Notes: generated by a model not told the origin, from the letters alone. A DNA stretch of 64,000 bases from Elusimicrobiota bacterium (GCA_027452025.1 DAIDHI010000080.1:58-64057); one strand, 5' to 3'. Shown: positions 8,016 through 51,751, numbered from the stretch's first letter. Made by a program: numbers and translations.

Positions 8016-8381
8016 TCAGCCGCGCCGGCGCCGGTGCTGGCGCAAAAGGCAATCGTCGGATACGACGAGGAGGCCCGCTTTGCGGGCGCGCTCTTCGCCG
8101 GCCGGGTGCGTGATCCCGTCTTGCAGCCAAAGCGCCTTCGCCTTGATCTTGATGGCCTCGTCGATCACGGGACCCACGACCTCGGGGTTGCGAAAGACAT
8201 CGACGACGTCGACGGGAAACGGGATCGCCGACAGGCTCGGATAGCACGTCTGCCCCAGCAATTCCTCGTGCCCGGGATTGACGGGAACCACGCGGTAGCC
8301 CCGCTCCTGCAGGTAGGCGGCCACGTAGTGGCCGGGACGGTCGGGCTTGGGCGAGCAGCCCACGACGGCGATGGTCTTCAT
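8016..8381 (-). CDS. CoA-binding domain protein (YccU-like)
   Basis: MKTIAVVGCSPKPDRPGHYVAAYLQERGYRVVPVNP is the typical CoA_binding_2 N-terminus. ATG at 8381 is preferred over the listed 8606. Confidence 0.8.
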   Translation of the reverse strand: MKTIAVVGCSPKPDRPGHYVAAYLQERGYRVVPVNPGHEELLGQTCYPSLSAIPFPVDVVDVFRNPEVVGPVIDEAIKIKAKALWLQDGITHPAGEERARKAGLLVVSDDCLLRQHRRRRG

Positions 8382-8452: not shown

Positions 8453-8830
8453 CTAGGCGCGGTACGCTTCGACCTGGACTTCGCCGTCCTCGATCTGGAC
8501 GTGCACGGAGACGACGCGCGAGCAGACCTCGCAATCCTCGTACATCGTCTGCCCGTCGGATTCCGACGTGACATGGACCTCGAAAGTCTCCCCGCAATAG
8601 GGGCACTCGACTTCGGCGTCCTCGTCGATGGCCGGCGTCTCCGGTGCGGCCGTGACCTCGGTCAAAACGGCTTCCAGGACCTTGGCCTGCCGGCTTTCCT
8701 CCCGCTCCTCCGCCGGCTCGGCGGTCCGGGCGGAAGCCGCCTTCCTGCGAACGGCTGGCCTCTTCGCGTGACTCGGCTTGGCTTTCACAAGCAATATATA
8801 CCCCCCACCTTTTTCCCGCGCAAGACCCAA
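8453..8830 (-). CDS. CPXCG-motif cysteine-rich (zinc-ribbon) protein
   Basis: C-terminal ECPYCGETFEV...YEDCEVCSRVVSVHV matches the CPXCG small-protein family. The start is uncertain (TTG 8830, GTG 8788 or later). The N-terminal half is low-complexity. Confidence 0.55.
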   Translation of the reverse strand: MGLAREKGGGYILLVKAKPSHAKRPAVRRKAASARTAEPAEEREESRQAKVLEAVLTEVTAAPETPAIDEDAEVECPYCGETFEVHVTSESDGQTMYEDCEVCSRVVSVHVQIEDGEVQVEAYRA

Positions 8831-8846
8831 AACTCCTGGGACCAGC

Positions 8847-11561
8847 CTATGCGCCTTTGCTCACCTTCTCGAGAGTCAGCCAGCGGTTGGTGCCCGCGAA
8901 CTTTTGGTGCATGCGCGTGCGCGGCTCGCCGTGGGGTGCTCCGAGCTCGGCCACCTGCAAGTCGGCCAGCGCCTCCAGGCCCTTCTTCTTGAACTCGCGC
9001 AGCGAGGCCTCGAGAGCCATGCCCACTGTGCGGAAGGCCAGCAGCGTCGAGAATTGCAGGACGTAGCCGAGACCGCCGAGCTCCTCGTTGGCGATGAGCC
9101 GGCCCTCTTGCTTGGCCTTGCCCCAATGCAGCGAGGGGGAGAGATTGAAGCCCAGCATCTGATCCGGGAAATACTTGTGCACGCCTTGGGCGAAGGCCCT
9201 CGGCCCGTCGATGCCGGTGTCGTTGAACTCGGCCCAAATGACGTCCACGCCCAGAGACGCCGCCTCCAGGGCCCGCGCGATCGCGTGGTCGACGCCCGGC
9301 CCGCGCCCCCCCGGCACGGCGCCGTCCACGGCGTCGGTGCGCGCGATCACGACGAGGTCCGTCTCCGTCGCCTGGGCGGCGGCCTTGACGGCGATGAGCT
9401 TCTCGATCCACTTGTGGGTAGGTACGAGCACCTTGTCTCGCTTGCTGCCGTGATGGGCGATGATGTGGCCGCACGTGCGCTCGGCCGGATCCTGGTCCTC
9501 GAGATGCACGCCGGCGGCGCCCGCGCGGATGAGCTCGCGCGCCAGCGTGAATGTCTGCGTCGGCCCGCCGAAGCCGGCCTCGATGTCGGCGAAGATCGGA
9601 GGCGCGGCCAGGACCTCGCCGTCGCGGTCGTAGAAGTGTCGGTCGCGCGTGCCCTCGATGCCGCGCAGGAGCTCCTGCACCAGCGAGACCATGGAATGTG
9701 AAGGATATATCCCGATGTCTGGATACATGTTGTGGGCGACGGCCAGCTGCCAGCCGCTGGCGTAGATCGCCTCGAAGCCGAGCTCGGTCAGCAGCGACGC
9801 CGTCACGGCGTCGTAGGCCCCCGCCGTGTGGAGGTAGGACTCCGCCGGATCGCTCCGCCGCCGGGCGAAGCGCGCCTTGAGCAGCGCCCTCAGCTTCTGC
9901 GCCGGATGCGTTTTTTCAAGCGGCGCATACATCTTCGCGAACTGCGCCGCGGGATAGGTCCACTTCTTGAAACCTTCGCTGGGAACGGCCGCCGTCTCGC
10001 TGATCATATCTTGGCTCCATTGGCTGGCGCGCTCATAGCGTCGCTCCAGCGCCTCTCTTTGTGCGCGCTCGCCGTTCTGGCGCTGCGCGCGCAGATCCTT
10101 GAAAATCTTCTTCAGCTCCTCGTCGAACCAGCCCGCGACGAGCTCGCGCGTGACGCGCTCTCCCTCCGCGGCCGCGACGGCGTGCCTGATGCGCTGCGCG
10201 ACCATCAGCCGGTAAATCCGGTCCGTCGCCAGATCCTCCATGAAGTTGCCGATGAGGTCGCCGTGCCGGTCGTAGCCTTTGATCATCCGAGCGCCGAGCC
10301 CCGAGAGCACGCCGAATCGATATTCGATCATGGTCCGGATCGCGTCCTTGGTCCCGGCGACGGTGATCGCCCCGATCCCGGTCGGCGCGGGAGTCAGATC
10401 GGGCTTGACCTCGGCGCGCGCGGGAAACGAATGGAGCTGGTTGGGGGCGGGGAATTGGGAAATGGCGGCCTCGTGTTGATCGGGATGCCCGGTCCAAGCC
10501 CCGTCGAAGCCGCAATCCGCTTCATTCTTCTTGTCCGCGGCCAGCCGCTCCATGGCTCGTCCGTTGACCGCGGCATCGCCGCGGTCGGGAAAGAGCGCCG
10601 TCATGCCCCCGATCGCCAGCGCCCCTCGCCGATGGCAGATCTCGACGAGCCGGCGGCGAACATTCTGAAAAAAAGGGATGTCGTGCGGAATCGTGTTACG
10701 GTCCGGCAGGATCCAGCCCGGGTCGGCGAGCTTGAACTCGAGGAGGCTGGCCATATAGTCCCAGCGGCCCAAATTGAGGCCGATCGCGTGTCGGCGAGCC
10801 TCGTAGAGGATCTCCTCGATCTGATAAGCTGCGGGCAGCGACTCGATAAGATACATGATTTTCGTCGTTCCCTCCGGCACGCCGATCGCCGCCTCCATCG
10901 CGGCCAGCGCGTCCGAAAACCACCGCGCCTCGGCGGCCGATTCCACTTTCGGGATGTAGAATCCGAGCTTAGCCTGCAGCCCCGGCGAGTGGACCGCCGC
11001 TTTACGCAGGTCCGCCGTCGGGAAAAAGACCGCGACCATGTCGAAGAGCGAGGCCGACACAATCTCTCCCGGGACGGCTCGCGTTTCGTCGAGATGCAGG
11101 CCGCGGGGGCGGTAATACATAGCCTGAGCGCTCGGCTTGACGCGGGCGGTCTTGCCCGTTTGGGGGTCGGCATAGGCGAGCGTGCCGCGAATGGCCAAGA
11201 CGGTGTTTTCTTGGGCCGTCCGCACGTGCTCCCACTCGGGCGAGATGGAGTCCTCTCCATCCGGCATGCATCCCGGATCGTCGGCGTTGCACATGCCGAC
11301 CAGGATCTTCGCGTTGTCGGCCGGACCGGTGATCTGATTGCGCTGGTCCTTGGCCCAGTCCGGCAGCCGGATCTTCCAGGCCCCGCTCGTCGCCTCCGAT
11401 TCCGGGAGGTAGTCGGGCATCCGTCCTGCGCGCGCGGACGCCAGGGCCGCGCGGCGCTGCTGCAACAGGGCCTGGCGCCTAGGCTCGAAGCGCCTGTGGA
11501 GAGGCAGCAGGAACCCGCGCAAGTCATCCGGAACAATCGCGACGCTTTGTGTCGTTTTCAT
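8847..11561 (-). CDS. bifunctional malate synthase (N-terminal, A-type) / isocitrate lyase (C-terminal) fusion
   Basis: aa 1-~520 align by eye to malate synthase A (RNQITGP, FYIPKVESAAEARWF, GLNLGRWDYMAS, GGMTALFP, DGAWTGHP). aa ~560-904 align to isocitrate lyase (ASGWQLA, ADIEAGFGG, VHLEDQ, TCGH catalytic Cys-His, VVIARTDA, GFNLSPS). It is a single uninterrupted 904-codon frame. Confidence 0.9.
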   Translation of the reverse strand: MKTTQSVAIVPDDLRGFLLPLHRRFEPRRQALLQQRRAALASARAGRMPDYLPESEATSGAWKIRLPDWAKDQRNQITGPADNAKILVGMCNADDPGCMPDGEDSISPEWEHVRTAQENTVLAIRGTLAYADPQTGKTARVKPSAQAMYYRPRGLHLDETRAVPGEIVSASLFDMVAVFFPTADLRKAAVHSPGLQAKLGFYIPKVESAAEARWFSDALAAMEAAIGVPEGTTKIMYLIESLPAAYQIEEILYEARRHAIGLNLGRWDYMASLLEFKLADPGWILPDRNTIPHDIPFFQNVRRRLVEICHRRGALAIGGMTALFPDRGDAAVNGRAMERLAADKKNEADCGFDGAWTGHPDQHEAAISQFPAPNQLHSFPARAEVKPDLTPAPTGIGAITVAGTKDAIRTMIEYRFGVLSGLGARMIKGYDRHGDLIGNFMEDLATDRIYRLMVAQRIRHAVAAAEGERVTRELVAGWFDEELKKIFKDLRAQRQNGERAQREALERRYERASQWSQDMISETAAVPSEGFKKWTYPAAQFAKMYAPLEKTHPAQKLRALLKARFARRRSDPAESYLHTAGAYDAVTASLLTELGFEAIYASGWQLAVAHNMYPDIGIYPSHSMVSLVQELLRGIEGTRDRHFYDRDGEVLAAPPIFADIEAGFGGPTQTFTLARELIRAGAAGVHLEDQDPAERTCGHIIAHHGSKRDKVLVPTHKWIEKLIAVKAAAQATETDLVVIARTDAVDGAVPGGRGPGVDHAIARALEAASLGVDVIWAEFNDTGIDGPRAFAQGVHKYFPDQMLGFNLSPSLHWGKAKQEGRLIANEELGGLGYVLQFSTLLAFRTVGMALEASLREFKKKGLEALADLQVAELGAPHGEPRTRMHQKFAGTNRWLTLEKVSKGA

Positions 11562-11637
11562 GGTCGCCTAGCGTAAGAAATACCGCCGCGGGACTCAACG
11601 GAGGATCGGATGCGGGAGAGTAAAAGTTTCTTGACGG

Positions 11638-12396
11638 CTAGATGGCGATGCGAAGGAGGTCGCGCGCCAGGCCGACCCGACGCCGACCGCGCACGAGGGC
11701 GCGCAGCTCGGCCTCCGAGCGTTCCGACAGGTGGGTCAGCAGCCCGCGCCGGCACGCGGACGCGCCAAGAGTCGCCAAGGCCAAGGGAGGCGTCAAATGC
11801 CCGGCCGCGGGCGAAAGAGAGGACAGGGTGCACTCGAGAAGGAAGAGATCGGCCTCGGCCGCGAAATCGGCCAATCCCGGATCGTAGCCGGCGTCTCCGG
11901 AATAAACAAAGCTCTTCCTCTTATACGAGAGCCGGTATGCCAGGGCCGGCGTCGGATGCGGGACCGAGCGCGCCGCGACGCGCCAGTCCGCGCCTCGCGC
12001 GTCGCGGCCGGCAGAGAGTTCCTCGACCTCAAGGCGGTAGCCCCGGGGCGACAGCCAGGGGCGATAGGCGCCGCGCAAATCGTGGAGGAATCGCGCGAAA
12101 TCCCGCGGGCCCCAGAGCCGCAGCCGCCGGCTCCTCGGGCGGGCCTCGTAGCGCAGGAAGAAGAGGAGCGCCGCCAAGTCCCCTACGTGGTCGGGGTGGC
12201 GATGCGAGATGAAGACGTCGGTCACGCGCGCCGGGTCCAGGCCCGCGCGCGCCATCTGCCGGACGGCGCCGAACCCTAGGTCGAAGAGCATGATCCGGCC
12301 GTCCAGCACGACGGCGTTGGCCGCGGCGTTGCGTACCGCAGCTTTCGGCCGCCGCGGCGCGAACGCGCTGCCTGATCCCAAGATGACCAATTCCAT
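11638..12396 (-). CDS. MBL-fold metallo-hydrolase (RNase Z/ElaC-like)
   Basis: MELVILGSGSA... and the HRHPDHVGD metal-binding motif. 252 aa. Confidence 0.75.
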   Translation of the reverse strand: MELVILGSGSAFAPRRPKAAVRNAAANAVVLDGRIMLFDLGFGAVRQMARAGLDPARVTDVFISHRHPDHVGDLAALLFFLRYEARPRSRRLRLWGPRDFARFLHDLRGAYRPWLSPRGYRLEVEELSAGRDARGADWRVAARSVPHPTPALAYRLSYKRKSFVYSGDAGYDPGLADFAAEADLFLLECTLSSLSPAAGHLTPPLALATLGASACRRGLLTHLSERSEAELRALVRGRRRVGLARDLLRIAI

Positions 12397-12518: not shown

Positions 12519-15269
<2,751 letters not shown>

Positions 15270-16738
15270 CCCAGGGGTCCTCCCGGATCTGGGCGTCCCG
15301 CTGCTCGATCTGAGCGTCGAGGCGTTCGCGCTCGTTGGCCGGCAGGAGCTCGTTTTCCTGGCGCCGGCGCGCGGCCCAGCGCCGCCACCGCGCCAAAAAG
15401 TCGTGCACGAGGCGCTGGCGCCAACGCGCGTGGAAGGCGGCCGCGAAGCGCGCCAGCCGCGCGTCCGTGGGCGAGGGCGGAACCTTCGGAGCCATGCCCA
15501 GATCTTGATAAGGCTCGACCAGGTCCGAGGCGAGCAATTCCCGACGGCGCTCGCAGGCCGAGACCAGGCGGCGCAGGGGCGCGTCCAGGATCAAGTCGGG
15601 CTGGACCTGCTCGAGGCGGACGTAGAAGCGGCATTGGCTGGCCTGGGCGTCGCGCTCGTCGTAAAACCGGTCGCCTCCGCCTCCGTCCAGGCGCCGGTCC
15701 AGGTGCTGCAGTTCGTGAAGCAGCACGCCCGCCAACTGCCCTGACGCGTATTCGACCCGGGTGCTGCCGTCGGGATAGCCGTAGCGCACGGGCTCGCCGC
15801 GGCGGCCCGGCAGAAGATGCCGCCGCTCGTCGAGCGGATTGACGGCGGCCAGGGGAACAGGACGGCCTTGAAGCCCGGCCCGAGCCAACTGCTTGGCCAG
15901 AACCTGGGCATTGACGGCCAGGCGCCCCTTGAGCATCGGCGTCTCGACGTAGCCGGGAGTGACGGTGATGATCCAGCCGTCTTGCGGCTGCGCGGGAGAA
16001 ACCGGCACGACGAGCCCGTAAGGCTGGCCGCGCGTGCCGTCCATGACCAAAAAGGTTTGGGTCCTTTTGAGGGCGGCCACCGCGGCCCACGCGTCCTCGG
16101 GGTCGGCCGCCTGGAGGACCAACCTCGCCAGCGAATCGAAGGGCGGGCGCAGTGGGGGCAAGTCGGCCGCGGTGGGGCGTCCGGGATGCGGCTGGCGCCA
16201 GGGCACGACGAACGGCTTGGGAGCTTCGGCCTCCTTGGGCGGGGCGGCTCCGGTGCTGACGGCCACCGCGGGCGTGCTCACGGCCACCGCGGCGGTGCTT
16301 TGGGCGATCTGCGCGGCCGCGGTCGGCGTGCTGACGCGGACCGCCGCAGCCTTCGCTTTGCGCGGCGGGATCTTGACCTTGGGCAGCGGCTGGCCTTGCG
16401 CCTCCCATGCGGTCTCGAGATAGCGCTCGCCCTCGGGCGTCAGGCAGAGCTTCTTGAGGTCCTCGACGGCGACCAGCTTGGCCGCCACCGCGGGGCCGAA
16501 GCGCGTCTGGCACCTCCTCCAAAAGGCCATCTCGGCGGCCTTGCGGATGTTTTCCGGAGCATGGCCGGCCTCGCAGTCCTCGTTCCAGAGCCTCTGGTCG
16601 ACCTGCCAGTCGTCGGCCAGATCCTTGGTGAAGGAAGCCTCGCACTTCTTGACGGCCTGGGTGGCGCAGCCGCTCAAGAGCAGCGCGCCGGCCGCGCAAA
16701 GGCCCAGCGCCCGGACGGCGCTGCGCGCGCCGGCGACC

Positions 16739-17887
16739 TTAGGCCCTCGAGCGAAACCGGGACAGTCGGAAGCGGTGGAGGTTGAGATCGGGCTTGCCTC
16801 CCATGATCATCTCCGCCATCGTCTTACCGACGAGCGGGGCGAACTTGAAGCCGTGGCCGGAAAAGCCCGCCGCCACGAAGCCGTTGGGCGCGTCGGGCAG
16901 GCGGTCCAGGATGAAGTCGTCGTCCTTGGTGTTGTCGTAATGGCAGACGGCGCCCTCGAACTCGGTGAAATCGGCGAGCTCGGGGATGTAGCGGCGGAAA
17001 AAAGCCCGGCATTTTTTCTCGAACGCCGGCGGAGCCTCGCGCGGCGAGCCCGGCTCCGGCTTGCCCGCAGGCCCCTTGCGATGATCGGCGACCTTGAGGA
17101 AGCCGTGGATATGCAGAGGGAAGCCATAGAAGCCGAGCGGCAGGGCCGCGAAGACCGGGAAATGCTCGGGCCGGTAGCGCCCGCGGTTGGCCGGCGGGCG
17201 CACGTAGAGCTGGAACTGCCGTGTCACCTTGATCGGCAGGCGGAAATCCTTAAGCAGCTCGGGAGTCCAGACGCCGCCGGCGAAGAGATAGGCGTCGCCG
17301 CGCCAGACCTTGCCCGTCGCGTCCTTGACGCCCTTGATGCCCGACTTCTTGTCGTGGAGCACGGCGGTGACGCGGGTCTGCGCCCGAAACTTAGCGCCCT
17401 TGCGCTGGGCCAGGGCGGCGTAAGCCGCCACGGCGCGCTGGGCCCAAATCATGCCGCCGTCCTTGTGGAACAAGCCGTACTTGATGGCGCGGGTGTTCAC
17501 CATCGGGTAATTGCGGCGCACCTCGTCCTTGCTCATCTTGACGACGGGCAGCTTCATCTCCTTGAGGACGTCGTAGCTCTGGTCCTCGTAGCCCTTCGTC
17601 TTCGTGGCCAGCTCGAGCATGCCGTTCTGGACGAGGATCTTGTCCTCCCACTCGGCGTTGAGACCCAGCCACAGCGGCAGCGCCTTGACCGCCATGTCGG
17701 TGTAGAAAGCGTCCTTGCCGTAGGTCAGGCGGAAGGCGCGCAGGTGGTCGCCGGAGGCCTGCCACTGATTGGGGACGTCGAACTGGTCGAGCAGGGTGAC
17801 CGCCCGGCCCTTTTGGGCCAGCCAGTAGGCGGCGGTCACGCCCACGATCCCGCCTCCGACGACGATGACGCCGTTGCTGTCGTTCAT
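16739..17887 (-). CDS. FAD-dependent oxidoreductase (DAO family; sarcosine/glycine-oxidase-like)
   Basis: N-terminal dinucleotide fold VIVVGGGIVGVTAAYWLAQKGRAVTLLD and C-terminal ...GFSGHGFKFAPLVG. ATG 17887 overlaps the upstream stop as ATGA. Confidence 0.8.
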   Translation of the reverse strand: MNDSNGVIVVGGGIVGVTAAYWLAQKGRAVTLLDQFDVPNQWQASGDHLRAFRLTYGKDAFYTDMAVKALPLWLGLNAEWEDKILVQNGMLELATKTKGYEDQSYDVLKEMKLPVVKMSKDEVRRNYPMVNTRAIKYGLFHKDGGMIWAQRAVAAYAALAQRKGAKFRAQTRVTAVLHDKKSGIKGVKDATGKVWRGDAYLFAGGVWTPELLKDFRLPIKVTRQFQLYVRPPANRGRYRPEHFPVFAALPLGFYGFPLHIHGFLKVADHRKGPAGKPEPGSPREAPPAFEKKCRAFFRRYIPELADFTEFEGAVCHYDNTKDDDFILDRLPDAPNGFVAAGFSGHGFKFAPLVGKTMAEMIMGGKPDLNLHRFRLSRFRSRA

Positions 17888-18282
17888 CTCAAAAATCGAG
17901 CTTCGATGCGCCTGAGGACTCCGTCGTAGCCGCCGGGCCCCGTCCGCAGCCATACGGCTCCTTCCTGCTCGGCGGCCCGGCCCAACCCGCCGTCCGCCGT
18001 CACGACCGTCACTCCCGCGCCGGAATACCGGCGGGCGCGCACGCGATCGAGGATCAGCGCGTCCGCCGGCTCCTCATGAGAGGCCCTCACACGCAGGTTC
18101 TCGGCCTCCCAGCGCCAGCCCCGCCTGGGGCCGTCGAAGAACAGCTCGACTTCCAACTGCCCTCCGGCCTCGGCGCAGATGCGCGAAAGAATCGTCACCA
18201 GGCGCTGCGCTTCCTCGTCTTCGTCCTGGGCATCCACCCCGCGCACGAGGTTGGTCCCATCCACACAATAAAGCCGCGACAT
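17884..18282 (-). CDS. NYN/PIN-like domain protein (YacP-like)
   Basis: 132 aa. MSRLYCVDGTNLVRG... and ...VTVVTADGGL resemble the YacP/NYN ribonuclease-like fold. Assignment is by pattern only. Confidence 0.5.
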   Translation of the reverse strand: MSRLYCVDGTNLVRGVDAQDEDEEAQRLVTILSRICAEAGGQLEVELFFDGPRRGWRWEAENLRVRASHEEPADALILDRVRARRYSGAGVTVVTADGGLGRAAEQEGAVWLRTGPGGYDGVLRRIEARFLR

Positions 18283-25436: not shown

Positions 25437-26876
25437 ATGGTCCGCCCCATGAAAGAAGCCTTCACTTTCCACGATGTCCTCCTTGTCCCGAAGCGCTCCT
25501 CGATCCGCTCGCGCCGCGACGTCGACACCTCCGGGCGTTTCTCCAAGAACATCGCCCTGGAATGCCCCATCGTCTCCGCGAACATGGATACGGTCACGGA
25601 GGCGAAGATGGCCATCGCGCTCGCGCAGGCCGGGGGCCTGGGCGTCATCCACCGTTTTCTGACGATCGAGGAGCAGGTGGCCGAGGTGGCCAAGGTCAAG
25701 CGCGCCGAGAACATCGTCATCGAGAAGCCTTACACGGTGGGGCCCGACAACAGCGTGGATTTCGCCAGGCGCCTGATGGCCGAGCAGGAGGTTGGCGGCC
25801 TGCTGGTCGTCGACGCCGGGCAAAAGCTGCTGGGCATCGTCACCTCGCGCGACCTGCAGTTCCAAAAAGACGACACCCTCCCGATCAAGCGCGTAATGTC
25901 CAAGAAGCTCGTCACCGGCAAGGTCGGCCTGGACCTCGAGGAAGCCCAGGATATCCTGCGCGAGCACAAGATCGAGAAGCTTCCTCTCATCGACAAGGAC
26001 GGCAAGCTCGCCGGCCTCATCACCGCCAAGGACATCCGCAAGAAGAAGCACCATCCGCACGCCTCCAAGGACAAGAAGGGGCGGCTGATGGCCGGCGCCG
26101 CGGTGGGGGTCGTCGGGGATTTCATGGAGCGCTCCTCCGCGCTCATCGCGGCCGGCGCCGACGTCCTGGTCGTCGACGTGGCGCACGGCCATGCCGACCA
26201 CGTCATCGACGTCGTCAGGAAGATCAAGCGCAAGTGGCCGGGCGCGGAACTGGTGGCCGGAAACGTGGCGACTTACGAGGGCGCCAAGGACCTGGCCGGC
26301 GCCGGCGCCGACGGCGTCAAGGTAGGCGTCGGGCCGGGCTCGATCTGCAGCACCCGCATCGTCTCCGGCTCGGGGCTGCCGCAGCTCTCCGCCGTCATGG
26401 AGTGCGCCAAGATCACCCGCGAGCGCGGCATCCCGGTCTGCGCCGACGGCGGCATCCGGGACTCCGGAGACATCGCCAAGGCCCTGGCCGCGGGAGCTTC
26501 CTGCGTCATGCTCGGCTCTCTTTTTGCCGGCACCGAGGAAAGCCCGGGCTGGACCGTGGTGCGCGACGGAGCACGCTACAAGGTCTACCGGGGCATGGCC
26601 TCCCTGGGAGCGACGTTGTCGCGCAAGCGCAAGGAGCGCTCCGACGACGAGCTGGATCCCATCGAAGTGGCCGAGGTCGTGCCCGAGGGGGTGGAGTCCA
26701 TGGCGCCCTTCAAGGGTCCGGTGGCCGACGTGCTCTACCAGCTCCAGGGCGGCCTTCGCTCCGGCATGAGCTACTCCGGGGCGCGCACGCTCAAGGAGTT
26801 CTGGGACAACTCGGAGTTCGTCCGGATCACCGCCGCCGCTTGGGCGGAGTCGCGGCCGCATCATCTCGACCGCTGA
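25437..26876 (+). CDS. guaB: IMP dehydrogenase
   Basis: [10 protein letters not shown], a CBS pair, [14 protein letters not shown] catalytic Cys loop, [21 protein letters not shown]. An alternative start at ATG 25449 sits just downstream of ACTATAAT. Confidence 0.92.
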
Positions 26877-28197
26877 AGAGCGGAGAAAGCTCCGGAAACG
26901 CTTCCAGCAGCTGCTCGCCGCGCAAGCGGTCCAGCCTCGCCGTCATCGAGCGCAACGCCTCGAGCTCTCCGCGGCAATCGTCGCGCGAATTCAAAAAGGC
27001 AAGCGCCGACCGAAACGGCGCCGCCGCGGCCTCACCCAAGGGCTCGAGGCGGTCGACGTAGGCCCGGTAAGCATCGATGGCGCGCTCCAGCAGCTCCGGG
27101 CCGAGGACGTGCGCCCGGTAATAGCGCGGCCAGCGCAGGGCTTTGATGCGCATGCCGTCCGCGGCCAGGTAGCCTTTTTCAACCCAGTCGCGGTGAAAAT
27201 TGGGCAGGTGGAGCGCGTTAAAGACGCTCAGCGTCGAGGCCACGGCGAAATCCACCCGGGGGCACTCACGCATGAGGCGCTTGCGGTTGTCCACTATGCC
27301 GTCCCACTTCTGCCCTTTGCGCAGGTACTGCGCCCGCGCGCCCATGGCATCGAGGCTGGCGACAACGCGCACTTCGCGGAACTTCGTCCAATAGCGCAAG
27401 GCGTCCCGGGAGCCCAGGCGCAGCGTGGAAAAGTTGGTCGTGTAGAACAAGGCGACGTCGAAGCGCCTGCGCGACGCCAGGTAGTCGAGGACGTCGTAAT
27501 GCTCGCGGGCCAGAAGAGGCTCTCCCGCGCCGCCGAATTGGATCGTGTGAGCCTCGTCGAGATGCGGCTTGAGGACCTCCAAGAAGCGCGCGCCCCGCGC
27601 CCCGGGCTCGATGAGCCTGGGCCGGGGGACCTTGCCGAGACGCTCGCCCGCCATGGCCGCCAGGTCGGGATACCAGCCCGAGCTGAGCTCGGGGTTGCAG
27701 GTCCGGCAGCTGTAGTTGCAAAGGTTGGAAAAGGTCAGGTGCAGGTAGCGCAGACGGGGATCGCGGAGGCCGCCGTCCTTCCTTGTCTGCGCGACCGCGT
27801 CGAAAAAACCGGAGAACCGGTCGTTGGCCCAATTGCGCATGCTGTACCAGCCGAAGCTCTCATGGGCCTGGCAGCGCTCGCATTGCGCAAGCCTCTTGCC
27901 CGCCAGCATGTCCCGGCGCGCCTTCTTGAGGGTTGGCTGGTTGAGAAAGCCGTCCGCGCGCAGGCCCTCCAAGCGCCCCAGGGACTTGCCTCGCGCGTCC
28001 CAGCGGCAGCACGGCGCCAGCCCCCCGTCGGCGAGGTTGCGCACGGCGAGCCAGGGCAGTATGCAGAAGCCCGGCGCTCGTTTAAGCGCGGCGTCGGGGC
28101 TCAGGCCTTCTTCAGGAGCTTGTTCTTGCAGAGTTGCTCGACCAGTGACCCAATCTCCGCCTCGGCCGCGGCGCCAGACACCTCGAAGAGACCGCAA
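26827..28197 (-). CDS. radical SAM protein with N-terminal Cys-rich (twitch-like) domain
   Basis: N-terminal FCILPW...PCC...CERC block, then the radical SAM motif CNYSCRTC (Cx3Cx2C). The listed TTG start (28197) overlaps the PqqD gene by 97 nt. A CTG at 28104 would overlap the PqqD stop as CTGA. Confidence 0.75.
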   Translation of the reverse strand: MRSLRGVWRRGRGGDWVTGRATLQEQAPEEGLSPDAALKRAPGFCILPWLAVRNLADGGLAPCCRWDARGKSLGRLEGLRADGFLNQPTLKKARRDMLAGKRLAQCERCQAHESFGWYSMRNWANDRFSGFFDAVAQTRKDGGLRDPRLRYLHLTFSNLCNYSCRTCNPELSSGWYPDLAAMAGERLGKVPRPRLIEPGARGARFLEVLKPHLDEAHTIQFGGAGEPLLAREHYDVLDYLASRRRFDVALFYTTNFSTLRLGSRDALRYWTKFREVRVVASLDAMGARAQYLRKGQKWDGIVDNRKRLMRECPRVDFAVASTLSVFNALHLPNFHRDWVEKGYLAADGMRIKALRWPRYYRAHVLGPELLERAIDAYRAYVDRLEPLGEAAAAPFRSALAFLNSRDDCRGELEALRSMTARLDRLRGEQLLEAFPELSPLFSGRDDAAATPPKRRR

Positions 28198-30629: not shown

Positions 30630-32612
30630 TCAGCTGGCCGCGGCGGAAAACGCGGCGAAATCGCTCATGCGAGGCATCTTGCGCACATAGGCGACGGCCT
30701 GCATCCGGTCGAGCGCGAGGCGCTGGGCGACCGGCAGGCTCGACATGGGCATGGCCAGGAAAAGGAAAGAGTCGTCCTCTTCGAAGACCCAGCGCCGCTT
30801 GACGAGGTCTGCGAGCGCCCGGCGCACGCGCTTGGCCGAGCAGCGGGGAAACTTTTCTTGGCAGGCCCGCAGGACGCCGGGGAAGGGACGGATCTCGTCG
30901 CAGGCTTCCAGGATCGCGGCCTCAAGGCCCGTGACCAGGCGCTGCCGGTGCTCGATGCGCCGGGAAAGCCCGAGCGGACGCGAGTCGTAGACCTCCATGA
31001 AGCCGAGGCCCTTGCGATAGGCGAAATAGTTCTTCTGGTAGATCCGCTGCCAATGGTCGAATATCGGGCGTATCACGGGCTCGGCGTAGTCAGCCGGATC
31101 CGGCTGCCCTTCGACGCTCGGCGCCTCGAAGAAGTAGGCGATCTCGCCGCGCTTGAAGCGCGGCTCTGGGTAGAGGAAACGGTATTCCTCCATAGGCACG
31201 GGCTCCCGCAGCCCGAAGCGCCGCCAGTCGAAGTAGTAGGGGCTGAAGCGGTCGACCCGGATGACGTGGGCGTAAAACGGCGGCTGCAGGTGCGTCGCCG
31301 CCGCCATCGTATCGGCGATCCTGCGGTACTCGTCGGGCGACTCGCCGGGAAAGCCCCACAGCATCCCCCACGTCAGCTGAATGCGGCCCGCGCAGGCCTT
31401 GAGCGCCTGGAGGTTTTGGATGGTCTTGACGCCCTTGCGCATCAGCTTGAGGACGGGCGTGCTGAAGCTCTCGATGCCCGCTTGGATCGCCAGGATTCCG
31501 GCCTCGTGAAGAGTCTCGATCTGGGCCGCCGTCAAGTTCGCCTTGGTCTCGAAAAAAACGTGCCACTCGAGCTTGTGCTTCTTGCGAAACTCCGCCAGGA
31601 CGGCGGTGAGGCTGGTGAGGTGCTCCACGCTCAGGATGTTGTCGCAGGCATGCAGCCGGTAGGTCTTGTATCTCTCGAAGAGGAAGGCGATCTCGGCGGC
31701 GACGGCCTGCGCCGGCTTGGCGCGGAACGTCATGCCGTCGCGGTTGAGCCCGCAGAACGTGCAGTGCTGCTTCTGCCCCCACCAGCATCCGCGGGAGGCC
31801 TCGAAAGTCACCTGCGGCGAGACCCACGATGCCATGCCCGAGGCCTCAAGCTCACGGAAATAGTCGTCGTGGTCGGGAACTGGCACGCGGCGCATGTCGG
31901 CCAGGCGCGTCTCAGCGGGGTTTCGGGAGACGACGCCCTCGCCTGTCCGCGCCGAGACATGCGGCATCCCCTTCGGGAGCCGGCCGGAGCGGATGTGCCG
32001 CAGCAGCGCCGGAAACGCCTCCTCGGCCTCGCCTTCGACGACGTAGTCGACCCACTCGCAGCCCTTGAGCGTCGCCACCCCCATCTCGCCGTCGCAATTG
32101 GCTCCGCCGAGGACGATCGTCGTTTTCGGATGCTTGCGCTTGATGAGGCGGGCCAGCGCCAGAGAGGCGATGTGATTGTGGAACATGCTGCTGAAGCCGA
32201 CGACGTCGTAGCGCCCCCAGGGGACGTCGGCCAGGCAATGCTCGAGGAAAGCCGGCACGTCGTCGCGCACGAGCCTGCGCAGGCGCTCGCGCGGAAATTT
32301 TCCAAGGTTCTTGGCGAACACGGGCTCGGCGAGGACGTCCTCGAGCTCGTCAGGCAGCTCCTTGAGGCCGCCCGGGCCGAAAAGATGATAGGCGAAGGCC
32401 CACTGCGCGAAATGCCCGTAGGGAGCGAGCGCGAAGGCGTCGAGAAGGTCGTCGGCCCACCGGCCGAAGCGCAAGTTGAGGTAGTGGACGTCGCAAGGCA
32501 TCCCTTCACGCGCGAGGACGCTTTTGAGCACGCCGACTCCGAGCGGAGGCCGGTCGGGCGCGGCCCAAGGCATGACGACCAAGGCGACGCGGAGGCTGCG
32601 CGGTTTGGACAT
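30630..32612 (-). CDS. B12-binding-domain radical SAM enzyme (class B; resembles RiPP C-methyltransferase-type)
   Basis: N-terminal LRVALVVMPWAAPDRPPLGVGVLKSVLAREGMPCDVHYLNLRF (cobalamin-binding-like Rossmann region), then SRGCWWGQKQHCTFCGLN (Cx7Cx2C cluster motif). 660 aa from ATG 32612. The listed 840-aa ORF has a junk N-terminus. Confidence 0.85.
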   Translation of the reverse strand: MSKPRSLRVALVVMPWAAPDRPPLGVGVLKSVLAREGMPCDVHYLNLRFGRWADDLLDAFALAPYGHFAQWAFAYHLFGPGGLKELPDELEDVLAEPVFAKNLGKFPRERLRRLVRDDVPAFLEHCLADVPWGRYDVVGFSSMFHNHIASLALARLIKRKHPKTTIVLGGANCDGEMGVATLKGCEWVDYVVEGEAEEAFPALLRHIRSGRLPKGMPHVSARTGEGVVSRNPAETRLADMRRVPVPDHDDYFRELEASGMASWVSPQVTFEASRGCWWGQKQHCTFCGLNRDGMTFRAKPAQAVAAEIAFLFERYKTYRLHACDNILSVEHLTSLTAVLAEFRKKHKLEWHVFFETKANLTAAQIETLHEAGILAIQAGIESFSTPVLKLMRKGVKTIQNLQALKACAGRIQLTWGMLWGFPGESPDEYRRIADTMAAATHLQPPFYAHVIRVDRFSPYYFDWRRFGLREPVPMEEYRFLYPEPRFKRGEIAYFFEAPSVEGQPDPADYAEPVIRPIFDHWQRIYQKNYFAYRKGLGFMEVYDSRPLGLSRRIEHRQRLVTGLEAAILEACDEIRPFPGVLRACQEKFPRCSAKRVRRALADLVKRRWVFEEDDSFLFLAMPMSSLPVAQRLALDRMQAVAYVRKMPRMSDFAAFSAAAS

Positions 32613-32657
32613 TTTGTTGCAAGGGGACGTCGCTGAAGTATTATAGTATATCGCCCT

Positions 32658-33209
32658 ATGGAGATCGTCGAGGAAGCCAGCGATATTTTCAGCTTTCAGC
32701 TCCTCTCGCCGAGCTATTGCCAAAAACTCGTCCGGTGGGCTTCGCGGGACCTCCGGTGGAATCGCGGGCGCGTGTACGCCGGTCCGCGGCGCCTGCAGGA
32801 CGCCGCCTCCCGCCGCTGCCTGGAGCGCACGGTCGCCGGCCTGCCCCCTCCCTGGAACGAGCTGGCGCAGGCTTGCCGCGAAAAGGCGCTTTCCGCGGCG
32901 CGGCTGTGCTGGCGCGAGCGCTTCAGGCGGCTGACCGGAGCGCGTCTGGTGCGCTACGACCCCGGCGGCTATTTCAAGATGCATTGCGACTTCCTCCCCA
33001 GCCTGCGGGTCAAGCCGCGCTTCCTGAGCCTGGTCTGCTATCTCAACGAAGACTTCTCGGGCGGGCGCACGGCCTTCCCGCGGCAAGCCCACGACATCGT
33101 CCCAAAGACCGGGAAAGCCGTCCTCTTCCCGTCCTCGATCACGCACCCTCACGAAGCCCAGGCCGTCCGAGAGGGGACCCGCTACGTGATCGTGGCCTGG
33201 GTCGAATGA
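32658..33209 (+). CDS. 2OG-Fe(II) oxygenase (prolyl-4-hydroxylase-like)
   Basis: YFKMHCD (HxD) ... ITHPHEA (distal His) ... RYVIVAWV, a double-stranded beta-helix pattern. 183 aa. Confidence 0.75.
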   Translation: MEIVEEASDIFSFQLLSPSYCQKLVRWASRDLRWNRGRVYAGPRRLQDAASRRCLERTVAGLPPPWNELAQACREKALSAARLCWRERFRRLTGARLVRYDPGGYFKMHCDFLPSLRVKPRFLSLVCYLNEDFSGGRTAFPRQAHDIVPKTGKAVLFPSSITHPHEAQAVREGTRYVIVAWVE

Positions 33210-34005: not shown

Positions 34006-35943
34006 ATGCTCAGAATATTGGCAGCTCTCCTGCTCGCCTGCCCGGCCGCCGCCGGCCAACTCCAGCAGGCCCCGGGGCCAGTCGAAGTCCCCTCTTTGCC
34101 CGCCGCGCAGGCCGCCGTTTTCCCGCGGCTCGACGCCCCGGCCGCGGCCGCGTCGCCCCAGGCGACGGCTTCCCAGGCGCCTCAAGCGCCCGCCGCGGCC
34201 GAAGCGGCGGAGCCGGCGGCCGCTCCGGCGCCGGCAGCCTTCGAGGCCCGGCCCTCCTTCGCGCGCCGCCTGCTCTATTCCAACTTCGCCGCGCGGCGCA
34301 TGGCGGCGCGCCTGCTCGACCGAAACCTTGGCTCCGCCCTCGGCGACCGGCTGTCATCGGAGCCGGCGCTGGCCCCTCACGCGCGGTTTTGGAGCGACCA
34401 ATCCGTGCGCATCGAGCTCGTCCCGGCCAAGGCCCTCGGTGCCTCGACGCGCGCGGCGAGCTACTCCCACAACCGGCGAGTCGTCCGGATCAACCGCGAC
34501 CGGGCCGCGCGCTGGCTCTGCGAGATCGCCGCCCAGGGAGCCCCTTTCGCGCAAGGCATCGACGTCCTGACCGAGAAACTCTTGCCGCTGCTGGCCCACG
34601 AGTTGCGCCACGGAATCACCAAGACCCAATGGCAGCGCGCCCTGGGCCATCGCCTCCCGATCGAGGCGCGCGAAAACGAGGTCCTCTCCTTCGCCGACGA
34701 GCTGCGCGTCTGGCAGGGGCTCAAGGATCGGCCGTCGGCGAGCGCCGAGCTCAGCCACCTCGACGAGCATCACCGGATCGTCGCCTCCTACTGGGCGCGG
34801 GACGGCTGGGCCGGTCTGGACTCGATCATCGACCAGGTGTATCGCCAGCCCGCCTTGCTCGGAGACCGGCAGGCCGTGCACGACGCCGCGCTCGCGGCCG
34901 CGGTCCGGACGCTCGGCGGCTCCGAGATCTCCGGCCTCCCCCAGACGCTCGCCGCGGCCTCCGGCGACGAGTCTTGGAGCCGCTTTCAGGAAGGCTTCCG
35001 CCCGCTCTATGAGGAGCAAAAGCGGGCCGTGGCGCCGGCGCCCGAGGAGACGCATCCGGCCTCGGCCATCGTCGCCGCGCTCAAGGCGACGGCGCTCAGG
35101 CGCCTGGCCTTCCGGCCTTGGGTCGTTCATCGCCTTCTGCCGCGCCTGCTCGGCGGCGCCGTGGTCAAGACCATGACCGCGGAGCTCGCGCGTCTCGCCT
35201 CGACCGGAGAGGAGGCCGCGTATCTGGCGCGCCAAGGTCCGGCGATCAAGCTCGACGGCGCTCCGCGCCTCGACGCGCACGACATGGCGCTCTACGACCG
35301 GGGCGCGCGCGACACGATCTATCTCAACCGCGACCGGCTGGGCGTCTGGCTGGCCTACCGTCTCATCGAGGGAGACTCGCCCAGGCAAGCCGCGCGCACG
35401 GTCGGCCTGAAGTTCCTTCCCACTCTCGCACACGAAGTGCGTCACGCGATCACCGACGGCCAATGGCTCGAGCGTTTGGGGTTCACCTTCATGGGCGGCA
35501 ACATCGAGACGGAGATGATCTCCCACGCGCAGACCGTCCGGGTCATCGGCGAGGTCAGGGCCAGGCACGAAAAGGAGCTTTCCTCGCGCCCGATCCCCGG
35601 ACTCGACGACCACCACGACGAGCTGCTCGAGCTTTGGCGGCAGGGCGGCTGGAGCGCCCTGGGCGCCTACGTGCGCCGCGAATACGAGACGCGCGTCTCC
35701 ATCCTCCGGACGGAGCGCGGCGAGCTCCACAACGTCATGAGCGCCATCGGCCTCGTCACCGCCGTGGGCATGTCCCAGGAAAAGGACGCCGCCGCGGCGA
35801 TGCGCGCCGTCTACGGCGACTTCCGCGCGTTTTTCTCCCAGCTCGACGACGCGGCCTCCTGGGAGGCCTTCCGCGGCCGCTTTTCCGGCGTCTACGCGCG
35901 CCAACTGCGCGCCGTCAGCCCCCGCCTTCCTTCCGCCCGCTGA
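34006..35943 (+). CDS. secreted protein with two tandem HExxH modules (hypothetical metallopeptidase-like)
   Basis: Signal peptide MLRILAALLLACPAAAG and an Ala/Pro-rich linker, followed by two homologous ~250-aa halves. Each half has ...NRDR...WL...LLAHELRHGI / LAHEVRHAI. Confidence 0.6.
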   Translation: MLRILAALLLACPAAAGQLQQAPGPVEVPSLPAAQAAVFPRLDAPAAAASPQATASQAPQAPAAAEAAEPAAAPAPAAFEARPSFARRLLYSNFAARRMAARLLDRNLGSALGDRLSSEPALAPHARFWSDQSVRIELVPAKALGASTRAASYSHNRRVVRINRDRAARWLCEIAAQGAPFAQGIDVLTEKLLPLLAHELRHGITKTQWQRALGHRLPIEARENEVLSFADELRVWQGLKDRPSASAELSHLDEHHRIVASYWARDGWAGLDSIIDQVYRQPALLGDRQAVHDAALAAAVRTLGGSEISGLPQTLAAASGDESWSRFQEGFRPLYEEQKRAVAPAPEETHPASAIVAALKATALRRLAFRPWVVHRLLPRLLGGAVVKTMTAELARLASTGEEAAYLARQGPAIKLDGAPRLDAHDMALYDRGARDTIYLNRDRLGVWLAYRLIEGDSPRQAARTVGLKFLPTLAHEVRHAITDGQWLERLGFTFMGGNIETEMISHAQTVRVIGEVRARHEKELSSRPIPGLDDHHDELLELWRQGGWSALGAYVRREYETRVSILRTERGELHNVMSAIGLVTAVGMSQEKDAAAAMRAVYGDFRAFFSQLDDAASWEAFRGRFSGVYARQLRAVSPRLPSAR

Positions 35944-36389: not shown

Positions 36390-36426
36390 GCGGCCTCTCC
36401 GCTCGCGCGGAGAGGCCGCTCATTTT
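36390..36426. terminator. GC-rich hairpin between convergent transcripts (likely bidirectional terminator)
   Basis: 13-bp stem GCGGCCTCTCCGC / GCGGAGAGGCCGC with loop TCGC, followed on the + strand by TCATTTTA. It sits between the stop of the 36012-36371 gene and the 3' end of rnpB. Confidence 0.5.
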
Positions 36427-36797
36427 AGGGAGAGCCTGTACCCCGAATTCTGTTCCCCCCTCGCGGAGGGCGAGGATCATTTCTCTGATGCGGCTACCGA
36501 GGAGCCGCCCCGCCTCTCGGCGGGACCGCGCGGGCCGCGCGAGCTCCCACACTGCCTTGCTCCGGACGGGGTTTGCCGTGACGCCGTCCCTCGCGGGACG
36601 GCCGGTGGGCTCTTGCCCCACCTTTTCACCCTTGCACTCCGCACGGTCTGCGGAGTGCGGTTGTTCTCTGTGGCACTTTCCGTCGGCGAAGCGTATGGTC
36701 TTCGCCTCCCCGCCTTTCGACGGGCGTCCTGCCCTGCGGAGTTCGGAAGTTCCTCCCCCCGCGACGCGTCGCGGAAGGCGATCCCCCGGCTCTCCCT
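36427..36797 (-). ncRNA. rnpB: RNase P RNA (bacterial type A-like)
   Basis: The reverse complement contains GGAAAGTGCCACAGAGAACAACCGC, GCAAGGGTGAAAAGGTGGGGCAAGAGCCCACC, GGCAAACCCCGTCCGGAGCAAGG and ACAGAATTCGGGGTACAGG. P1 pairing is AGGGAGAGCC...GGCTCTCCCT. The ends are approximate. Confidence 0.85.
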
Positions 36798-44710: not shown

Positions 44711-45655
44711 CTAGACCGACGGGACTGGGCGAGCTTGCAACTGTTTTGTGGCGGGAATGAGACGCTGGATCGCCTCCGCCATCCCCCTCGCGGCGGCTTC
44801 CTCGCCCGCGGCGTTGGGCCACGGCAGGCCCGGACGCAGCCGATAGCGCTTGAGCGGCGGCCTCAGGTCGCCGACCCCGTCATGAAAGGGAAGGCCGCAG
44901 GCGGCCGCGTACGTCCGGTAGGCCTGACGGACGGGCTCGGCGTCTCGAAGCGACCGCAAGGCGGGATCGGGGAACAGGACGACGACCCCCGGAACGCGGG
45001 CGCGGCGCAGGATCCTCGCGACGAGCGCCAAGTTGTCCCGGATCGACTTCGGATGAAACGGGATCGCGGGCCTGGGCCGCGACCAATAGGAGCGTTCCAT
45101 GTACCAGCGCAGCAAGACGCTGTGCGTCCTGAGGAAGTTCTTGAGGCGGGGAAAAGGATACCGCGCCTTGGCCAGAGGAGGCCCTTGGTCCAAGGCGGCT
45201 TCGAAGACCACGAGATCGGGGTGCCATTGCAGCGCCCGCGCCTTGAGGAACTCCCGCTCCTGGCCGAACTGGTAATGGTACATCGAAGCGTTGATCACAA
45301 CCAGCCGCATGCCCCGCGGCGGCCGGAGCAGGCCTTCCAGGCGGCGGACGAAGCCGGCCGCCTCCGGCAGCCCCAAAGCGAACGCCGGCTCGTCTCCGAC
45401 GACGACGACCCGGTATTCGCCGGCGGGCTTGGCCTTCGGGATGTCGCGCTCGCGCAGGCCGTCGGCGTTGATGCGGGTAAACGCCCCTTCCTTCATGCCG
45501 GCGGCCCCAGGACGCAGCTCGAAGCCGAGGCCGGGATCGAGGCTGTCCTCGTAGACGAGCGCGTCCTCGTGAATCACGGCCCTGGCGACGGCCTCCGCGC
45601 AGGCGGCCGCGGCGACAAGCGCGCAGGCGGCCGCGGCTATGGTCCTCGGCAACAT
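44711..45655 (-). CDS. secreted SGNH-hydrolase-like protein (hypothetical)
   Basis: Signal peptide and a VVVVGDEPAF block in place of the GDS motif. The flavodoxin-like alternation is weak evidence. Confidence 0.4.
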   Translation of the reverse strand: MLPRTIAAAACALVAAAACAEAVARAVIHEDALVYEDSLDPGLGFELRPGAAGMKEGAFTRINADGLRERDIPKAKPAGEYRVVVVGDEPAFALGLPEAAGFVRRLEGLLRPPRGMRLVVINASMYHYQFGQEREFLKARALQWHPDLVVFEAALDQGPPLAKARYPFPRLKNFLRTHSVLLRWYMERSYWSRPRPAIPFHPKSIRDNLALVARILRRARVPGVVVLFPDPALRSLRDAEPVRQAYRTYAAACGLPFHDGVGDLRPPLKRYRLRPGLPWPNAAGEEAAARGMAEAIQRLIPATKQLQARPVPSV

Positions 45656-51676: not shown

Positions 51677-51751
51677 TGGTGGGCAGTATAGGATTCGAAC
51701 CTATGACCCCTGTCGTGTGAGGACAGTGCTCTACCGCTGAGCTAACTGCCC
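51677..51751 (-). tRNA. tRNA-Val (anticodon CAC), CCA-encoded
   Basis: Reverse complement: GGGCAGT TA GCTC AGCGGTA GAGC A CTGTC CTCACAC GACAG GGGTC ATAGG TTCGAAT CCTAT ACTGCCC A CCA. This gives a full cloverleaf with a 7-bp acceptor stem and a TTCGAAT T-loop. Confidence 0.9.

Follow-up and report, generated by a model that had tools for sequence, protein, structure and literature searches.

Fusions of isocitrate lyase (ICL) with malate synthase (MS) were described by Kondrashov et al. 2006 in nematodes, in the order ICL-MS, in Euglena, in the order MS-ICL, and in the bacterium Anaeromyxobacter dehalogenans (PMC1630690), and the fusion catalogue of Henry et al. 2016 lists a further case in Anaeromyxobacter sp. 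Fw109-5 (PMC4921024). The nematode and Euglena fusions have been described as bifunctional enzymes (PMC1630690), and no biochemical characterization of any bacterial MS-ICL fusion was found in the literature. The gene analyzed here lies on the minus strand (8847..11561) of a 64,000-nucleotide stretch of the genome of an Elusimicrobiota bacterium (GCA_027452025.1, DAIDHI010000080.1:58-64057), hereafter the window, and encodes an MS joined through its C-terminus to a compact domain of the ICL family. Literature searches on Elusimicrobia or Elusimicrobiota and the glyoxylate shunt, or on a fusion of this kind in the phylum, returned nothing relevant. An earlier reading of the window made from the sequence alone (the sequence-only reading) had named both eukaryotic precedents correctly but had not known the architecture to be common in bacteria, where it has turned out to be widespread. 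RefSeq entries from Anaeromyxobacter sp. K, A. oryzae and Bdellovibrio bacteriovorus show the MS-ICL order, and it recurs in more than 100 metagenomic clusters (the best 120 listed being nearly all proteins of at least 950 residues with both domains) and in at least seven further representatives of 50%-identity clusters. The fusion architecture is known and widespread, and the distinctive part of the window protein is its compact ICL subtype with a rebuilt catalytic loop.

The gene is an open reading frame (ORF) of 904 codons plus a stop codon, continuous from ATG to stop exactly as the sequence-only reading had placed it, and its product is identical to P0001, an NCBI protein from a 64.5-kb contig. 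With a third-position GC content of 0.85, typical of real genes in a window with 67% GC, the ORF is a genuine coding sequence and no accident of high GC. Pfam and PDB matches agree in describing a single polypeptide in which malate synthase A (MSA) is N-terminal to an ICL-family domain, as had been proposed. Another 46 full-length proteins of 875-922 residues, at 70-78% identity and collinear across the junction, were recovered from NCBI, JGI, ENA and Logan assemblies, and mean column identity among the 47 full-length fused proteins reaches 79%. Every named fused orthologue comes from the Elusimicrobiota, and the frame is an uninterrupted single ORF in the loci of 20 GTDB species representatives, all titled Elusimicrobia or Elusimicrobiota and including one Candidatus Endomicrobium, which belongs to the same phylum. 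The fused gene is therefore real and under purifying selection. A 614-codon ORF antisense to it (9732..11576, plus strand) was considered and discarded as a typical high-GC shadow ORF.

In the MS half, Pfam detects MS_N (PF20656) at residues 9-55 (27.6 bits against a gathering cutoff of 23.5), MS_TIM-barrel (PF01274) at residues 148-376 (E 4e-55; 186.9 bits against 26.4) and MS_C (PF20659) at residues 399-491 (35.5 bits against 23.1), while the best solved structures are the MSA entries 3cux and 3cuz (E ~1e-74, residues 10-498). Residues R151/R153, E240, D268 and D443 are invariant in 48 of 48 sequences; R151, E240, D268 and D443 align with R166, E250, D278 and D447 of E. coli MSA in the 3cuz alignment, and we take them, following the assignments reported by Lohman et al. 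2008 and in the literature on MSA and malate synthase G (MSG), to be the catalytic arginine, the two Mg2+ ligands (Glu and Asp) and the catalytic-base aspartate. An Asp/Arg mechanism has been described for MS (PMC3112382). The MS half belongs to a divergent MSA-like clade. In operons of Acidobacteriota, MS proteins about 50% identical to it have canonical KKCGH ICLs as their partners, and this pairing supports a true glyoxylate-shunt role for the clade.

The ICL half is recognized by the Pfam ICL family (PF00463) from residue 552 (E 6e-42; 144.3 bits against a gathering cutoff of 26), and the solved structures that match it best are the isocitrate lyases 6lrp and 7cmx (E ~1e-51, residues 573-895). 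It comprises about 371 residues, not the 340 or so first estimated, and falls in a compact subtype of about 371-388 residues, as against about 430 in canonical bacterial ICL. In common with canonical ICL (AceA; M. tuberculosis ICL1; 1f61, 6lrp, 7cmx) it has, by sequence, the TIM-barrel fold of the ICL/phosphoenolpyruvate (PEP) mutase superfamily, the Mg and substrate motifs, the Cys-Gly-His general-acid triad and the Trp/Phe/Thr specificity residues. The set of positions invariant in all 48 sequences comprises SGW602-604, D659/E661, E688-D689-Q690, C697/H699, R741, E778, N806/S808/S810 and F837/T839, so that the catalytic Cys-His pair is indeed retained within an altered loop, as the sequence-only reading had claimed. 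The use of Trp, Phe and Thr to discriminate ICL from methylisocitrate lyase (MICL) was reportedly set out by Liu et al. in 2005. Phe and Thr are the ICL-type specificity residues, and methylisocitrate lyases (PrpB) have Leu and Ser at the corresponding positions (PMC11982470). Membership of the ICL half in the PrpB family was considered and rejected: the loop reads RTCGH and not KRCGH, the TIGR02317 score lies under its cutoff, and the ICL-type Phe and Thr are present.

The altered loop, ERTCGHIIAHHGSKRDKVLVP, occupies residues 694-714 (nt 9482-9420). It carries RT in place of the KK of the KKCGH motif of ICLs (PMC11982470) and a 7-residue insert after CGH, and the resulting pattern, CGH-[IV][IV]-A-H-H-G-x-K-R-x-KVLVP, is invariant in the compact clade, 80 sequences of which carry the altered loop; outside this clade the loop is the canonical KKCGH[LM]GGKVLVP. 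The window ICL also differs from its canonical counterparts in being shorter, with an internal deletion, an N-terminus about 17 residues shorter than in solved ICLs and no lid tail, its chain ending 9-13 residues past HQxxxGT, as against 26-49 in solved ICLs and the Bdellovibrio fusion. The altered loop and the compact features are common to the unfused partner genes and to more than 70 standalone genes, and they are therefore no product of the fusion. A sibling branch (P0123, P0377, P0383) of standalone compact ICLs of about 378 residues, some of them from Gemmatimonadota, has the loop NRTCGHIVNVGKxKRNKVLVPR, with an insert of equal length and the same basic pair but without the histidines, and with ENQ replacing EDQ just upstream. 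The genes of this branch at L089:7001-8134 and L090:4072-5205 stand amid cell-envelope and polysaccharide genes, and no gene for MS occurs in the 7 kb around them.

Comparison with the known fusions sets the window protein apart. The proteins of Anaeromyxobacter (P0415, 1111 residues; P0426 in A. oryzae) and Bdellovibrio (P0482, 969 residues) also present MS_N, MS_TIM and MS_C followed by ICL in a single polypeptide and would presumably catalyze both steps of the glyoxylate shunt, as predicted for the window protein. Yet these and the other known bacterial fusions use canonical ICLs and are only 31-34% identical to it, and the ICL of Anaeromyxobacter and Bdellovibrio is of canonical full length, with the EKKCGH[LM]GGKVLVP loop and a C-terminal tail, whereas that of the window is compact. 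P0415, P0426 and many of the listed clusters are in addition triple fusions with a C-terminal hemerythrin domain (PF01814, residues ~989-1103), and this hints that in Anaeromyxobacter-type proteins the glyoxylate shunt is under a control linked to O2, iron or NO. The bifunctional glyoxylate cycle enzyme of Euglena gracilis carries both shunt enzymes in one chain and in the same MS-ICL order (PMC1630690), and the nematode enzyme (for example Strongyloides P0127, with MS at 456-923) carries them in the reverse order; both eukaryotic enzymes are longer (967 to more than 1100 residues) and have canonical KKCGH ICL domains. Given the 31-34% identity, the differing ICL subtype and the fact that each half has unfused proteins as its closest relatives, the window fusion is independent of those previously known.

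Since neither half varies at any of its catalytic or substrate-binding residues, the best reading of the window protein is that of a bifunctional glyoxylate-shunt enzyme, and we regard it as a probable one that would convert isocitrate to succinate and glyoxylate, and glyoxylate and acetyl-CoA to malate. Isocitrate would be cleaved by the C-terminal ICL domain, with Cys697 on a mobile loop acting as the general acid, and the N-terminal MS domain would condense the glyoxylate with acetyl-CoA. The protein presumably assembles as an ICL-driven tetramer carrying four MS domains, and its selective benefit would presumably lie in a fixed 1:1 stoichiometry and in holding reactive glyoxylate close to its consumer; that the fusion might go as far as channelling glyoxylate is an idea already put forward in the sequence-only reading. 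Several observations weigh against a bifunctional shunt enzyme. Neither half attains the corresponding NCBIfam cutoffs: the MS half scores 343.3 bits against 594.5 for the TIGR01344 equivalog, and the ICL half 203.3 against 562 for PRK15063 and 188.5 against 275.9 for TIGR01346. The ICL hexapeptide is usually given as the PROSITE-type pattern K-[KR]-C-G-H-[LMQR], and three of the six positions in R695-T696-C697-G698-H699-I700 lie outside it, this deviant form being invariant in the clade. Relative to solved ICLs, about 18 residues are deleted after ARTDA and about 17-35 residues are lacking from the C-terminal tail, leaving the lid tail missing; in M. tuberculosis ICL1 this tail forms a lid over the active site of the neighbouring subunit and moves with the Cys loop (PMC8099091). 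At least two genomes hold a standalone compact ICL paralogue in addition to the fusion, and no conserved neighbour tied to acetate or fatty-acid use was seen among the fused loci compared.

Some of these same observations could indicate a shifted specificity, with the compact ICL-like domain cleaving 2-methylisocitrate or another 2-substituted hydroxy-acid and the MS-like domain then condensing an acyl-CoA with the oxo-acid so formed (glyoxylate or pyruvate), in a pathway other than the shunt. The rebuilt loop, the absence of a lid, the scores of both halves under equivalog cutoffs and the retention of a second, standalone copy in some genomes would all suit such a role, and ICLs are promiscuous towards 2-methylisocitrate (PMC11982470). 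Nonetheless, there is no variation in the ICL-type Trp604, Phe837 and Thr839 or in the N-x-S-x-S motif that binds succinate, PrpB and other lyases of the superfamily match less well than ICL by some 35 orders of magnitude (E 1e-13 to 1e-15 against 1e-51), the TIGR02317 score reaches 89.9 bits against a cutoff of 354.4, and no methylcitrate-cycle genes lie near the loci examined. We thus consider a shifted specificity unlikely, although it is the alternative to a bifunctional shunt enzyme that fares best.

As a hypothesis only, the conserved basic pair of the insert might replace the lost Lys-Lys of the loop, and the longer loop might replace the lid. It is conceivable, if rather doubtful, that the tail-less RTCGH/AHHGxKR proteins constitute a mechanistically distinct ICL subclass in which the longer loop, with its Lys-Arg and His-His, replaces lid closure and the Lys-Lys charge, and that in the fusion an (MS-ICL)4 particle hands glyoxylate directly to MS.

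The linker between the two halves had been put at about 40 residues, but it amounts to about 13 in the window protein; the remainder (residues 534-572) is the conserved N-terminal segment of ICL itself (WTYPxAEFAKMYAP...), which is also conserved in the standalone homologues. Among orthologues the linker ranges from 8 to 30 residues and is variable in sequence. An AlphaFold2 model of the full protein, built on a 29-sequence alignment, has a mean predicted local distance difference test score (pLDDT) of 68.6, with a good MS half and a poor ICL half (27-87), and it was not used structurally; values under 50 over residues 528-550 are weak evidence on the linker. A short, variable and probably flexible linker would be compatible with two proteins being made from the one ORF, whether by internal initiation near the junction (e.g. 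at Met519) or by proteolysis of the linker, the fusion then serving as transcriptional or translational packaging; Met519 is invariant and is preceded in the window by a GGAG-like sequence. The conservation of Met519 is, on the other hand, explained by its position in a C-terminal helix that is conserved in unfused MS as well (...SEQMIHRGEF), the frame has been kept open over a length-variable linker in 47 lineages, and the Euglena and nematode fusions are bifunctional enzymes by description (PMC1630690), all of which makes production of two proteins improbable. It is less probable still that the ICL-like domain is catalytically dead and serves as an oligomerization or regulatory module for MS: the loss of both the canonical loop Lys-Lys and the lid tail could be read in that sense, but the Mg-binding, substrate-binding and general-acid residues do not vary among the 48 sequences or among the standalone homologues, of which there are more than 70; this is unexpected of a dead domain, and in the standalone genes there is no MS that could be regulated. 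The notion that a sequencing or assembly error erased a stop codon or frameshift between two genes is refuted for practical purposes. Related loci do show frameshifts (two in CP096137.1, one in L022), evidence that errors or decay occur in these GC-rich assemblies, but within the fused clade errors break fused genes and do not create them, and the conservation of the intact junction across independent assemblies, with 47 full-length fused proteins from differing projects and assemblers and the 20 GTDB loci, excludes a missed stop or frameshift there.

On the origin of the fusion, unfused relatives are informative. Split pairs in L002, L020 (an Acidobacteriota metagenome-assembled genome, MAG) and L029 (Elusimicrobiota) have the genes in the order MS then ICL, as in the fusion, with an MS of the same clade (61-68% identity) and a compact ICL of the same kind, bearing the RTCGH..AHHG loop. 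They differ in that a stop codon and a spacer divide the two genes, with an MS that ends in ...MI[HL]RG[ED]F and a gene for an ICL-like protein of 388 residues; in L002 the MS ends in ...MIHRGEF, the spacer measures 57 nt and contains a ribosome-binding site (GGGAGG...ATG), and the ICL starts with MKAKDTVTT... In a neighbour-joining tree of the MS domain, the 47 fused proteins form one clade with 21 split MS proteins as its sister group, and the only non-fused members inside the fused clade are the frameshifted P0062, one partial sequence and two apparently truncated sequences of about 525 residues. The fused halves likewise form one clade in the ICL-domain tree, where 57 standalone compact ICLs are the sister group and where two sequences called standalone (385 and 423 residues, on contigs of 1.7 kb and 6.8 kb) fall inside the fused clade; both are distance trees without support values. 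Both trees return one fused clade with split MS-ICL operons as its sister, and the pattern is most simply explained by one in-frame fusion event within a single lineage of Elusimicrobiota; synteny likewise supports an origin from a split operon, and the account is a supported inference though no proof. In that event an MS gene and the compact ICL gene directly downstream of it would have been joined in frame when the stop codon and the short spacer dividing them were lost.

Two observations were set aside. The 556-residue P0062 of CP096137.1, a complete genome, could pass for the ancestral split state and is in fact a fused gene with two frameshifts. In this Elusimicrobiota MAG (L025:~9450-9860, the same locus as L001), one frameshift lies in the linker and the other about 124 residues into the ICL half, and it is because of them that the database entries are a separate MS (P0062) and ICL fragments; the gene is either a pseudogene or the result of a long-read consensus error. 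The broken locus has the same flanking genes as the intact fused locus L084, in orthologous synteny. Among the best 80 of 317 loci taken from a tblastn table sorted by score, 51 unfused loci were listed (within L027-L080, from Acidobacteriota, Syntrophobacterales and Planctomycetales), and in 46 of these the genes for MS and a canonical ICL share a frame, frequently divided by just one stop. Programmed readthrough, at which this excess seemed to hint, was rejected: a tblastn high-scoring segment pair can run through an in-frame stop and so lift same-frame loci in the table, and the excess is most likely an artefact of ranking. When loci were ranked on the MS score alone (L072-L083), same-frame cases stood to different-frame ones as 1 to 5. 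Stop codons in the unfused loci vary (TAA, TAG, TGA), several spacers hold further stops, and the spacers carry AGGAG and ATG.

Table 1. Features of the fused gene and its neighbours, in coordinates of the 64,000-nt window
Feature	Coordinates	Strand	Basis
Complete fused gene	8847..11561	-	ORF list; identical to P0001; 46 collinear full-length orthologues
MSA-type half, residues ~1-520 (MS_N, TIM barrel, C-terminal domain)	10002..11561	-	PF20656, PF01274, PF20659; 3cuz/3cux alignment
Junction/linker, residues ~521-533	9963..10001	-	47 fusions aligned with the L002 split pair
Compact ICL-family half, residues ~534-904	8850..9962	-	PF00463; 6lrp, 7cmx alignment; invariant substrate/Mg motifs
Altered catalytic loop, E694-RTCGH-IIAHHGSKRD-KVLVP714	9420..9482	-	Sequence; kept in 48/48 sequences including one unfused ICL
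Metallo-beta-lactamase (MBL)-fold hydrolase gene	11638..12396	-	Pfam Lactamase_B_2; 76 nt upstream of fusion, same strand
Aconitase A gene	12519..15269	+	Pfam Aconitase and Aconitase_C; divergent orientation
CPXCG zinc-ribbon gene	8453..8830	-	PF14255; immediately downstream of fusion
CoA_binding_2 (YccU-like) gene	8016..8381	-	PF13380, residues 77-191 of maximal ORF; second gene downstream; likely start MKTIAVVG

The genes around the fusion (Table 1) follow an order, aconitase/MBL hydrolase/fusion/CPXCG/CoA-binding/FKBP/deaminase, that is found in full in L006, L019 and L023 and in part in L004, L008, L016, L024 and L086. The sequence-only reading had pointed to the aconitase gene, about 1 kb away on the opposite strand, as a consistent metabolic context; the position stands, at 958 nt from the start codon of the fusion and with the MBL-fold gene in between, but the adjacency is limited to the nearest sub-lineage. 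Only the window, L006, L019 and L023 have aconitase in the vicinity of the fusion, the surroundings of the fusions in L084, L085 and L086 contain none, and the MBL-fold gene is syntenic only in L006, L019 and L023. As a functional partner, aconitase was rejected on finding that other fused loci have unrelated neighbours, which include short-chain dehydrogenase, aldehyde dehydrogenase, TatD and NTP-transferase genes; the adjacency is lineage synteny and no conserved functional linkage. Downstream, the position of the CPXCG gene is conserved in L004, L006, L008, L016, L019, L023, L024 and L086 and that of the CoA_binding_2 gene in L006, L008, L019, L023 and L086; the juxtaposition of a CoA-binding protein with an enzyme that uses acetyl-CoA could be meaningful or a coincidence. 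A promoter scan around the gene returned two promoter-like sites against 0.4 expected, neither of them placed to drive the minus-strand fusion gene, and a scan for terminator-like sites returned four against 3.2 expected.

The standalone compact ICL paralogues of fusion-bearing genomes, at L087:7001-8173 (P0288) and L088:7001-8167 (P0337), are about 77% identical to the fused ICL half. Both follow a large gene with tetratricopeptide repeats (TPR) and a polysaccharide deacetylase domain, both have two-component and iron superoxide dismutase (Fe-SOD) genes nearby, and in L088 only a ferritin/rubrerythrin gene adjoins the paralogue. Methylcitrate and acetate-use genes were sought around these paralogues and none was found; an oxidative-stress context may apply to them. 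Within the window, a gene for an FAD oxidoreductase of the DAO family (16739-17953, minus strand) stands about 5 kb away from the fusion. The family includes glycine and D-amino-acid oxidases that form glyoxylate, and a link to MS is therefore conceivable.

The remainder of the window is ordinary chromosome. A class A RNase P RNA (182 bits; 36423-36797, minus strand) and a tRNA-Val(CAC) (51677-51751, minus strand) are its sole Rfam and ARAGORN matches, and an odd AT skew at 28-30 kb proved to be an ordinary glycosyltransferase gene. Four sizeable ORFs with third-position GC of 0.82-0.88, at 26827-28197 (minus), 34006-35943 (plus), 15217-16677 (minus) and 44711-45655 (minus), gave no match to Pfam at E <= 1e-5. 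In the first of them there is a CNYSCRTC motif that recalls radical-SAM enzymes, and a B12-binding radical SAM gene (30630-33152) is located about 2.4 kb away.

Fusing MS to ICL is a way of building the glyoxylate shunt that has recurred and been catalogued before; the Elusimicrobiota, an uncultured phylum, add one independent origin, and in this respect the finding is of limited general importance. It nevertheless offers a clean natural case of evolution from operon to fusion, with split sister operons surviving beside the fused clade. In tuberculosis ICL is a drug target, and its catalysis requires the closing of both loop and lid; a natural ICL family that presumably works without a lid, and with a longer loop, could show what lid and loop contribute. 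For the organisms themselves, the consequence is one of annotation. The PGAP name of the fused protein is only "aldolase/citrate lyase family protein", and pipeline labels for the proteins of this group at large go no further than "isocitrate lyase/PEP mutase family" or "aldolase/citrate lyase family". Since annotation pipelines label these proteins only by such broad family names, pathway reconstructions for Elusimicrobiota, Polarisedimenticolia and Gemmatimonadota may miss the glyoxylate shunt.

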